Positions 32,217-32,499 of a stretch of DNA of 64,000 bases are shown piece by piece. Every line of letters begins with the position of its first letter. The stretch's first letter is position 1. Origin of the DNA: Bacilli bacterium (GTDB taxonomy: Bacteria > Bacillota_I > Bacilli_A > RF39 > UBA660); NCBI GenBank assembly GCA_017513865.1, contig JAFWMN010000008.1:15232-79231 (forward strand), in the 5' to 3' direction. The translations under genes were made by a program, and so were the position numbers. The notes under the pieces are model-generated. The model saw only the letters and a program-made list of their open reading frames with translations, was not told the origin of the DNA and did not search any database.

Positions 32217-32340
32217 ACTTTATAATTTTTTATAAAGTTTTTTTATTTTAAAAGGAAATAATAAAAGCGCCCAGTATATTAATATATGAGGGCGCAAGCT
32301 AGGTAAGCCTCTTTAAAGGGGGTGATGCATATGGAGGAAT

Positions 32341-32406
32341 ATGGAATACTTAATTATTCTTGTTATCGTTTTAGTTATTCTAAAAGATACACCTCTAAAA
32401 AAATAA
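32341..32406 (+). CDS. Candidate type I toxin peptide 1 (21 aa, not in ORF track)
   Basis: GGAGG RBS; MEYLIILVIVLVILKDTPLKK; sits in a structured mRNA with 5'-3' pairing. Confidence 0.65.
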   Translation: MEYLIILVIVLVILKDTPLKK

Positions 32407-32464
32407 AAAAACCTAGCTATTAACTAGGCTAAACCAAATTGAGGTTTGCCTGGTGGCACCCTCT
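32405..32464 (-). ncRNA. Candidate antisense antitoxin RNA 1 (approximate ends)
   Basis: Minus-strand promoter at 32471..32499; CCTAG/CTAGG hairpin (32412..32428) followed by T-run on minus strand. Confidence 0.5.
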
Positions 32465-32470
32465 AAATAT

Positions 32471-32499
32471 TTTATAGCATATTCCTCATATTTTTTCAA
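32471..32499 (-). promoter_or_regulatory. Convergent sigmaA promoter (antisense RNA 1)
   Basis: TTGAAA-17-TATAAA with extended -10 TG on minus strand. Confidence 0.6.

Follow-up and report, generated by a model that had tools for sequence, protein, structure and literature searches.

The question raised by the element at positions 32266 to 32499 of the 64,000-nucleotide (nt) stretch analysed here (contig JAFWMN010000008.1 of assembly GCA_017513865.1, from a Bacilli bacterium; hereafter the window, to which unprefixed coordinates refer) is whether it constitutes a type I toxin-antitoxin locus, in which a 21-amino-acid (aa) hydrophobic peptide would be encoded opposite a convergent antisense small RNA (sRNA), as proposed in an initial annotation. 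Our analysis indicates that it is probably a chromosomal type I toxin-antitoxin module belonging to a previously undescribed family. This interpretation is drawn from sequence comparison and is supported by a conserved reading frame, by a covarying stem on the plus strand, and by a conserved position of the sRNA promoter together with a conserved terminator.

The toxin-candidate open reading frame (ORF) occupies 32341..32406 on the plus strand and, in the translation listing, encodes the 21-aa peptide MEYLIILVIVLVILKDTPLKK. A small hydrophobic ORF had been claimed here, and it is not only present but maintained in homologs. A DNA search in relatives recovered a copy that is 99% identical in genome G004, another of 83% identity in G034, and many at 68-74%, often several per genome. 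The aligned homologs encode peptides of 20-26 residues with the consensus MEYLVILVIILxLLKDxPxKK. Over the first 16 codons of 26 distinct ORFs, codon position 3 is the most variable, with summed entropies of 12.6, 5.4 and 18.6 for positions 1, 2 and 3, respectively. In addition, 1623 of 3429 differing codon pairs among 26 distinct copies (47%) are synonymous in the hydrophobic frame, compared with 184 of 2957 (6%) and 498 of 3202 (16%) in the remaining two frames; purifying selection thus acts on the hydrophobic frame. Initiation codons are variable, with ATG in 14 of 30 distinct copies, TTG and GTG in 7 each, and CTG and TTA in one each, such that 16 of the 30 are not ATG. No Pfam or NCBIfam family matched the 21-aa peptide at E <= 10, although profile searches are weak at such a length. 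The small hydrophobic protein-coding toxin gene typical of type I systems is therefore represented by a 21-aa ORF with a conserved hydrophobic frame, the product of which is a candidate toxin.

The two ends of the predicted toxin transcript are complementary. The 5' arm, GAGGGCGCAAGCTAGGTAAGCCTC (32288..32311, plus strand), which contains both AGCTAGGT and the anti-Shine-Dalgarno motif CCUC, was delimited from folds, covariation and strand asymmetry, and the 3' arm, GAGGTTTGCCTGGTGGCACCCTC (32441..32463, plus strand), from folds, cognate-arm tests and strand asymmetry. Plus-strand RNA from 32288 to 32466 folds with an energy of -59.2 kcal/mol (z = -5.24 and -5.02), none of 200 shuffled sequences being as stable, and its minimum-energy structure includes a long 5'-3' stem closed by both arms, precisely where pairing between the 5' leader and the 3' end had been claimed. 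Both MAFFT and covariance-model alignments placed the outermost helix poorly, and for that reason we compared the energies of cognate and non-cognate arms without an alignment. In 36 copies (L030:715-876 and L064, which are cut by contig ends, were excluded), cognate arms averaged -35.3 kcal/mol versus -22.5 kcal/mol for non-cognate arms, with 0 of 20000 permutations as low. The difference was retained among 14 representatives with arms less than 75% similar (-36.4 versus -20.6 kcal/mol, again 0 of 20000 permutations), and the best partner was the cognate arm in 12 of the 14. The decayed copies L034 and L069 were left out of this representative set and of the strand-asymmetry test described below. 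The covariation signal extends across subfamilies: outer helices differ in sequence (GAGGGCGC, GAGGAAGA, GAGGCGG, GGAGCAC, AGAGATAGA, GGAATGTTC) yet remain complementary. In an alignment of 12 sequences, 95.7% of cells are paired versus 90.3% when shuffled (0 of 500 as high) and at most 57.5% when slid, with most pairs invariant.

The stem also has a strand. In 33 of 34 distinct copies, the arm duplex is more stable when folded as plus-strand RNA than when reverse-complemented (mean -36.8 versus -31.0 kcal/mol), and it averages 26 base pairs (bp), 3.5 of which are G-U. Because the stem is stronger on the plus strand, this argues against terminal repeats that act at the level of DNA. Furthermore, in a blind scan of 212 short hydrophobic ORFs with a ribosome-binding site across the genome, the locus ranked second by complementarity of its 5' and 3' flanks. 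A further pairing involves the centre of the 5' arm, where AGCTAGGT (32298-32305) is exactly complementary to ACCTAGCT (32411-32418), located 5 nt past the stop codon, and RNA trimmed at the 3' end (32288-32432) refolds such that AGCUAGGU pairs with ACCUAGCU. Read by eye, a three-way relation is seen in six sequence-distinct subfamilies, the 5'-arm centre resembling the 3' half of the hairpin that follows the ORF and the 3' arm resembling its 5' half.

On the minus strand, a putative promoter at 32471..32499 is composed of a -35 TTGAAA (32499..32494), a 17-nt spacer, TGc, and a -10 TATAAA (32476..32471). The RNA predicted from it is ~60 nt in length, extending from ~32465 to ~32403-32405, with ends placed according to the promoter and terminator positions, the fold and the orphan copies described below, and it would fully complement the 3' untranslated region (UTR) of the toxin mRNA, namely hairpin T, a linker and the 3' arm. 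Hairpin T (32410..32430) appears to serve both strands: in minus-strand RNA it would be the intrinsic terminator of the sRNA, and in the plus-strand transcript the 5' arm has its alternative partner in the 5' half of the hairpin, ACCTAGCT. Taken on the minus strand (32430..32410), the hairpin has 9 pairs followed by a T-run, as the initial annotation had claimed for the end of the RNA, and it is the sole terminator-like site between 31900 and 32900 (shuffled sequences yield a mean of 0.3). The sequence CCTAGC-loop-GCTAGG is invariant or nearly so in all 12 aligned copies, and in the window the T-run abuts the toxin stop codon. The predicted sRNA (32465..32403) folds into a 5' stem-loop and the 9-bp terminator at -21.2 kcal/mol (z = -3.04). 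In 31 of 38 copies, the minus strand carries a TTGnnn-16..18-T[AT]nnnT motif whose last base precedes the 3'-arm complement by 6-13 nt, and TGn often stands ahead of the -10; the -10 is TATAAA in the window copy, L009 and L010, as read by eye. Since the sequences flanking the motif differ between subfamilies, it is the position of the promoter that is conserved and not simply sequence identity. Sequence and conservation thus both point to a cis-encoded antisense RNA gene with a promoter and terminator of its own, as found in type I systems.

The initial annotation identified the peptide ORF correctly but overlooked that the strongest ribosome-binding site serves another frame. This Shine-Dalgarno sequence (SD1), GGGGGTGAT at 32318..32326 on the plus strand, occurs as GGAGGTGAT or GGGGGTGAT in nearly all copies, and it precedes the ATG at 32331 of a leader ORF of 30 codons (frame b, MEEYGILNYS..., 32331..32423, plus strand), for which the translation listing gives an upstream GTG at 32322. 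The frame-b ATG lies 10 nt 5' of the toxin ATG, which places the toxin in the +1 frame, and the leader ORF spans the entire toxin ORF before stopping at 32421-32423, inside the post-ORF hairpin. SD1 is separated from the frame-b ATG by 4 nt here and by 5-7 nt in homologs. The toxin ATG is itself preceded at a distance of only 3 nt by a second motif, GGAGG (SD2, 32333..32337, plus strand), and a similarly close SD2-like motif is seen in most homologs (column 14 nt 5' of the start).

Leaders were parsed from 44 copies, giving 30 that are distinct, of which 26 have ATG or GTG at the frame-b start. In 25 of these 26, the leader-to-toxin offset is 7, 10, 13, 16, 19, 22 or 31 nt, all of the form 3n+1; the lone exception has an offset of 12 and a leader that ends in TAA immediately 5' of the GTG start. 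The remaining four are two leaders with ATA, L062, which was mis-parsed and by eye has an offset of 13, and one leader truncated at a contig end. The residues of frame b show no conservation, with 6% of differing codon pairs synonymous, and therefore it seems to be the translation of that frame that matters and not its product. In the distant subfamilies L073, L076, L077, L054 and L056, and at a second related locus in the window, SD1 directly starts the hydrophobic peptide. We considered, and rejected, a programmed +1 frameshift that would carry ribosomes on the leader into the toxin frame, an idea suggested by GGAGG 3 nt upstream: there is no slippery site and no zero-frame stop, and the copy that ends its leader with TAA right before the GTG start also argues against it.

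SD1 is predicted to be mostly paired. In the full-length fold of the window copy it pairs with CACCUCU within the 3' end of the ORF (32390..32396, plus strand), an element that not all homologs conserve, as read from their flanks. Across 33 copies (L034, L068 and L069 were excluded here and from the comparison of the sRNA with the start region, below), SD1 has a mean unpaired probability of 0.16 in full-length RNA, 0.09 when the 3' UTR is blocked, and 0.07 when the RNA lacks its 3' arm, and the corresponding value for the region around the toxin start stays at ~0.4. Structure of the kind that restrains translation of type I toxin mRNAs, namely SD sequestration and 5'-3' pairing, is thus found in silico and by covariation.

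How widespread is the element? A covariance model built from 12 copies, with matches counted at E <= 0.01, detected it in 20 of 65 genomes of the genus, and in 10 of the 26 that are of high quality. Matches per genome reached nine in G014, five in G023, four in G033 and three in G078; the window genome has one, this subtype being single-copy there. In a sample of the class, 4 of 151 genomes matched, but clearly so only the window genome itself and G142, which represents another genus of the same family and carries three copies; the two others had E ~0.007. A scan of species-representative genomes with an exact pattern returned 15 stretches, all of them metagenome-assembled according to the record titles, most from uncultured Bacilli, Firmicutes, Tenericutes, Erysipelotrichaceae, Candidatus Coprosoma or Candidatus Aphodocola, and two from one record titled uncultured Muribaculaceae. 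The same scan of metagenome contigs returned 10 stretches. Plasmid and phage collections yielded no match at E <= 0.01.

Several copies show decay on the toxin side. In L012:1228-1332, L013:549-653, L035, L070 and L071, the toxin part is absent or a remnant, and the sRNA unit consisting of promoter, arm complement and terminator is kept. The toxin start has been lost in L068 and L034 (TTA) and in L102 (CTG); the arms remain in L068 and L102, and L034 also lacks the 3' arm. L018 is without the 5' arm and SD1. Decay of the toxin with retention of the sRNA gene is the pattern that a harmful peptide and a protective RNA would be expected to leave. We also observed tandem arrays at L012:1228-1974 (G033:C34) and in L013 (G023:C134), each with an orphan sRNA unit followed by two complete modules ~320 bp apart. 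A patchy, multi-copy family with tandem arrays, decayed toxins and orphan sRNA copies is in keeping with a type I toxin-antitoxin module.

The mechanism that we infer from this arrangement, including antisense expression, transcript ends, cleavage by RNase III, the role of the leader, toxicity of the peptide and the relative stabilities of the two RNAs, would operate as follows. The toxin mRNA, ~178 nt from ~32288 to ~32466 on the plus strand, would pair its ends through a stem of ~24-26 bp to form a panhandle, inside which SD1 would be held base-paired. SD1 would feed the non-conserved leader frame across the entire toxin ORF, and the 21-aa peptide would start 10 nt downstream, in the +1 frame, from SD2; we propose that the peptide is made rarely because this second site is poorly spaced, and its translation may be either coupled to or occluded by that of the leader. 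From the minus strand, the ~60-nt RNA would be produced from its own promoter and would end at the intrinsic terminator located immediately beside the toxin stop codon. The 5' part of this RNA can be regarded as a perfected copy of the mRNA 5' arm, because it is perfectly complementary to the 3' arm, and the sRNA would therefore displace the 5' arm from the 3' arm. The result would be an sRNA-mRNA duplex of ~60 bp that is a substrate for RNase III, with the mRNA ends exposed. The freed 5' arm bears CCUC and would be able to pair with SD1, although this effect would be minor. Strand displacement, a duplex cut by RNase III and exposed mRNA ends are the most likely means by which the sRNA acts, and the proposed RNase III route matches that of the 3'-side antisense systems of Bacillus in the excerpts available of PMC6563280 and PMC3834814. 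Upon loss of the sRNA, which would be unstable, the stable folded mRNA would yield enough peptide for membrane damage. The genome does encode RNase III (126.7 bits, in a 246-aa open frame).

We can take this further only tentatively, and we doubt somewhat that it will hold in full: the module may represent an undescribed design that unites toxins among the shortest known (20-24 aa), a mok-like single-frame leader and a strand-displacing antitoxin RNA at the 3' end of a panhandle. Were this the case, ribosomes that load on the strong leader site would cross the toxin ORF harmlessly, or gate it; the antitoxin would be a perfected copy of the 5' arm, with control exerted entirely from the 3' UTR; and the design would be a lineage-specific invention of uncultured gut Bacilli with small genomes.

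A number of observations weigh against a type I toxin-antitoxin module that works in this way. The strictly hydrophobic core of the peptide is ~12 residues, which is short for a membrane-spanning helix, and at 21 aa the peptide falls below the sizes of Gram-positive toxins given in an excerpt of PMC6563280 (28-60 aa for B. subtilis and 34-59 aa for C. difficile). The accessibility of SD1 is nearly constant across states, which gives weak support to the proposed SD switch; given that SD1 is already mostly paired in every state, such a switch would have at most a minor effect. Of the two mutually exclusive folds put forward in the initial annotation, the exact complement and the refolding after trimming stand, but the trimmed fold (32288-32432) is no better than shuffled sequences (z = -1.44; 23 of 200 as stable). 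Across subfamilies, cognate pairing of the 5' arm with the 5' half of hairpin T is little better than non-cognate pairing (-10.9 versus -9.6 kcal/mol; 988 of 20000 permutations as good), the cognate partner being best in 2 of 14 representatives, in a test where automatic delimitation of the hairpin failed in several rows. The permutation figures for the arms overstate significance, because related copies are not independent. The minus-strand extended -10 promoter is present as originally described, but a consensus promoter scan missed it in the window copy, since the scan demands a T at the end of the -10 and TATAAA has none; its support comes from homologs, in which the promoter is conserved. 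The scan also yielded no clear promoter or terminator on the plus strand at the locus. Finally, one covariance-model search omitted the window copy even though the window was one of its sources, and the same copy scores 156.5 bits in the genus search.

The neighbourhood of the element bears on what else it could be. Its upstream neighbour is a gene for a DUF362 protein. Downstream lies a two-gene ATP-binding cassette (ABC) operon, encoding an ATPase (32527-33204) and a 639-aa FtsX-type permease (33188-35107), and we observed that this operon is flanked on its far side by the second related module (35160-35400), so that the two modules bracket it within 32266-35400. Homologs elsewhere have upstream neighbours as different as MgtC, YfhO, a PDDEXK nuclease, a histidine kinase and an RNA polymerase subunit, and of 10 downstream neighbours three are ABC ATPases, the rest being pilin-like, thioester-domain, LD-carboxypeptidase or unknown. 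In L063, a histidine kinase lies on one side of the family member and an ABC ATPase on the other. The family may be loosely associated with transporters of this kind.

The second module ranked first of 212 in the genome-wide scan. Its ORF (35217..35291) encodes MSKKDFLILSLIIIIILLIILLLK, started directly by GGAGGTGGTGAT, and its 5' arm, GGGAATATTTAACAGTTTGAGTGCTTACCTCC, complements a 3' arm ending in ...GTTAAGTATTCCC, with a hairpin and A-run past the stop codon. The peptide resembles those of L056 and L076, and searches of Pfam and NCBIfam with it returned noise only (E >= 2.7). A third related locus in the same genome, at G000:C29:22417-22500, encodes MSKKDFLVFSLILIILLLIALLFVMLK and ranked fifth of 212, with a flank duplex of -37.8 kcal/mol.

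Given that toxicity of the peptide is only predicted and that its hydrophobic core is short, the main rival explanation is that it is a harmless small membrane protein, such as a modulator of a transporter or of the envelope, the level of which is tuned by the sRNA, in which case there would be no toxin-antitoxin pair. We regard this as unlikely, though it deserves to be taken seriously. The short core, the single copy of this subtype in the genome, the ABC ATPase and FtsX-permease operon flanked by the two window loci, and the ABC ATPases among the downstream neighbours of homologs would all suit such a protein. Most neighbours, however, are unrelated to transport, and a patchy distribution across 20 of 65 genomes with tandem arrays is not what such a protein would lead us to expect. 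Retention of the sRNA in orphans and where the toxin start has been lost fits a harmful peptide and a protective RNA, and translation appears to be restrained at several points, with SD1 sequestered, SD2 poorly spaced, and a non-ATG start in 16 of 30 distinct copies. A different assignment of the product would make the 30-residue frame-b peptide, translated from the strong ribosome-binding site, the functional one and the hydrophobic frame a by-product. SD1 is indeed ideally spaced for it, 26 of 30 distinct leaders have ATG or GTG, and the frame is conserved; however, it is the hydrophobic frame that shows the excess of synonymous change (47% versus 6%), the most conserved base falls at the third codon position of frame b, one copy has a frame-b ORF of only 3 codons, and SD1 directly starts the hydrophobic peptide in the distant subfamilies named above and at the second window locus. 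Searches of Pfam and NCBIfam with the frame-b peptide returned no matches. We give this assignment very little credence.

Equally improbable is the alternative that the initial annotation had itself named, in which the element acts in cis, as a leader or attenuator of the ABC operon that follows it (32527-35107); the stems would serve as terminator and antiterminator, and the ORF would encode a leader peptide. The element lies 63 nt upstream of the ABC ATPase start, neither a strong plus-strand terminator nor a separate operon promoter was found, the syntenic copy in G034 likewise precedes an ABC ATPase, and there are two mutually exclusive pairings. This is countered by the variety of the neighbours, since homologs precede unrelated or even convergent genes, and by the occurrence of tandem arrays and orphan halves. 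Moreover, the promoter that is conserved is oriented against the operon, with a terminator downstream of it, and the peptide sequence is conserved, which is unusual for attenuator leader peptides. Least credible of all is a miniature mobile or repeat element in which the arms are terminal inverted repeats of the DNA and the ORF is incidental. Multiple intergenic copies of ~200-300 bp with inverted-repeat ends do resemble such an element, but the arms make use of G-U pairs and are more stable on the plus strand in 33 of 34 copies, a bias that DNA repeats would lack; conservation of the ORF is codon-position-specific; promoters, ribosome-binding sites and the terminator are conserved; and copy numbers are low, the plasmid and phage collections having yielded no match. 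We therefore continue to prefer the reading as a type I toxin-antitoxin module.

Upstream of the module, a putative -10 of the toxin promoter, TATATT (32275..32280, plus strand), would set the mRNA start at ~32288. GTATATT-like motifs are found at an equal distance in homologs, and in the L055/L065/L066 subfamily transcription from a canonical TTGAAA-17-TATAAT would begin with the first nucleotide of the 5' arm. A AAGGAAAT box (32252..32259, plus strand) lies ~28 nt 5' of the 5' arm, in the presumed -35 region, and is not TTGACA-like; most MEYL-type copies have GGAAAT or GGAATT 27-29 nt before the GAGG of the 5' arm. This box follows a T-rich tract and could reflect an alternative sigma factor or a regulator site. 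We also noted an inverted repeat, GCGCCC (32267-32272) and GGGCGC (32290-32295), that encloses the putative -10 and extends into the beginning of the 5' arm, with the counterparts ACCC/GGGT in L010, CTCG/CGAG in L014 and TTTTACCGT/ACGGTAAAA in L029. It shows a small covariation in a subset of copies only (-5.15 versus -4.32 kcal/mol; 55 of 10000 permutations). On the minus strand of the window copy, this repeat is followed by TTTTATTATTT.

Elsewhere in the window, a 45-aa cysteine-rich ORF at 30266-30403, MEGKNCNCSPECTCGCQDDKECTCNGECTCGEENNCGSECTCEEK, is located just past a tRNA cluster and is metallothionein-like by composition. The only Rfam matches in the window at the gathering threshold are four tRNA genes (29595-30111) and an L21 ribosomal-protein leader (46865-46942).

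Type I systems are thought to be narrowly distributed, in part because searches for them depend on similarity to known families, according to excerpts of PMC12390103 and PMC5367252. The present element adds a well-supported candidate family in uncultured gut Bacilli with small genomes, found from structure and comparative signals alone, the toxins of which are so short that ordinary gene calling and protein searches would pass over them. With the whole module occupying ~240 bp, it could serve as a compact Gram-positive model for 3'-end antisense control, panhandle mRNAs and overlapping leader frames. The family also provides markers for the annotation of many unannotated intergenic regions, including three loci in the window genome alone.

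It remains to compare the module with the type I systems already described. We found no description of the family in the literature, although the supplementary tables of T1TAdb, which lay outside the search, could list related loci. No Rfam family matches the element at its gathering threshold. The model for BsrG (RF01412) gave 22.9 bits against a threshold of 55 (E = 0.0037), and had no match at E <= 1 in 10 related loci scanned, nine of them with a homolog; membership of BsrG was rejected, the sub-threshold match that does not recur in homologs being treated as chance.

The antisense RNAs of the B. subtilis systems BsrG/SR4, TxpA/RatA, BsrE/SR5 and YonT/SR6 are far longer than 60 nt, and to our knowledge no leader ORF has been described for these systems. 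They do resemble the module in their Firmicute host and in a small hydrophobic toxin with a charged C-terminus. They also have a convergent antisense RNA 3' of the toxin mRNA, the 3' side being where an excerpt of PMC8594479 places the antisense RNA of Gram-positive type I systems. The same excerpt lists anti-SD elements and 5'-3' long-distance pairing as hallmarks of type I toxin mRNAs in general. Binding of SR4 to the 3' side of bsrG mRNA promotes decay and tightens SD pairing (PMC3834814, in part), and RNase III degrades the duplex in the Bacillus 3'-side systems (PMC3834814 and PMC6563280, in part). Unlike the module, however, these systems have toxins of 28-60 aa, compared with 20-24 aa here, and antisense RNAs that overlap the ORF in the account of PMC8594479 that we could draw on, whereas the predicted RNA here ends at the stop codon.

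The module shares with hok/Sok (mok) and Ldr/Rdl the pairing of mRNA 5' and 3' ends and a second partner that becomes available to the 5' element upon loss of the 3' end. In hok mRNA, the 5' end pairs with the 3' end, and the 5' element obtains its alternative partner after 3' removal (tac, fbi, dcb); the toxins of hok/Sok and Ldr/Rdl are ~50 aa. A leader frame that overlaps the toxin ORF is also common to these systems (PMC8594479, in part), and the one found here upstream of the toxin ORF keeps its frame in 25 of 26 distinct leaders. The antisense RNA differs: in the excerpted account of PMC8594479 it lies on the 5' side and blocks leader translation, whereas the only conserved minus-strand unit that we found covers the 3' UTR and not the start region of the leader. 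Furthermore, those systems are Gram-negative, and the element has no sequence or Rfam similarity to them and no hok or Sok match.

Fst/RNAII (par) and SprA1/SprA1as likewise have convergent transcripts with a 3'-end overlap that excludes the ORF, and there repression relies on complementarity to the translation start region, away from the overlap (PMC8594479, in part). An Fst- or SprA1-like mode was rejected here, as complementarity of the sRNA to the start region is no better for cognate pairs (-18.1 kcal/mol) than for non-cognate pairs (-18.3 kcal/mol), 6622 of 10000 permutations being as good. Nor did the peptide match the Fst family among the Pfam and NCBIfam profiles at E <= 10, a search of low power at such length.

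AapA1 is a 30-aa toxin; long-distance pairing of the 5' and 3' ends keeps its mRNA locked until trimming at the 3' end activates it. The module resembles AapA1/IsoA1 of Helicobacter pylori in its short toxin and long-distance pairing, metastable structures being named for that system in PMC6733600 (in part). The antisense RNA there is overlapped fully by the mRNA and covers part of the ORF in the excerpt of PMC8594479, unlike that of the module. That system is also epsilonproteobacterial, and there is no sequence similarity. Ibs toxins are 18-19 aa, and it is to Ibs/Sib of Escherichia coli that the module is akin in having a very short, very hydrophobic peptide. The Sib RNA covers the entire ORF (PMC8594479, in part), whereas the sRNA terminator here abuts the stop codon; in addition, Ibs/Sib is Gram-negative and has no panhandle mRNA. 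The element belongs to none of these families by any feature tested. Its layout would instead appear to bring together what those families have separately: a Bacillus-like 3' overlap, a panhandle like those of hok and AapA1, a hok-like leader frame, and a toxin of Ibs-like size.

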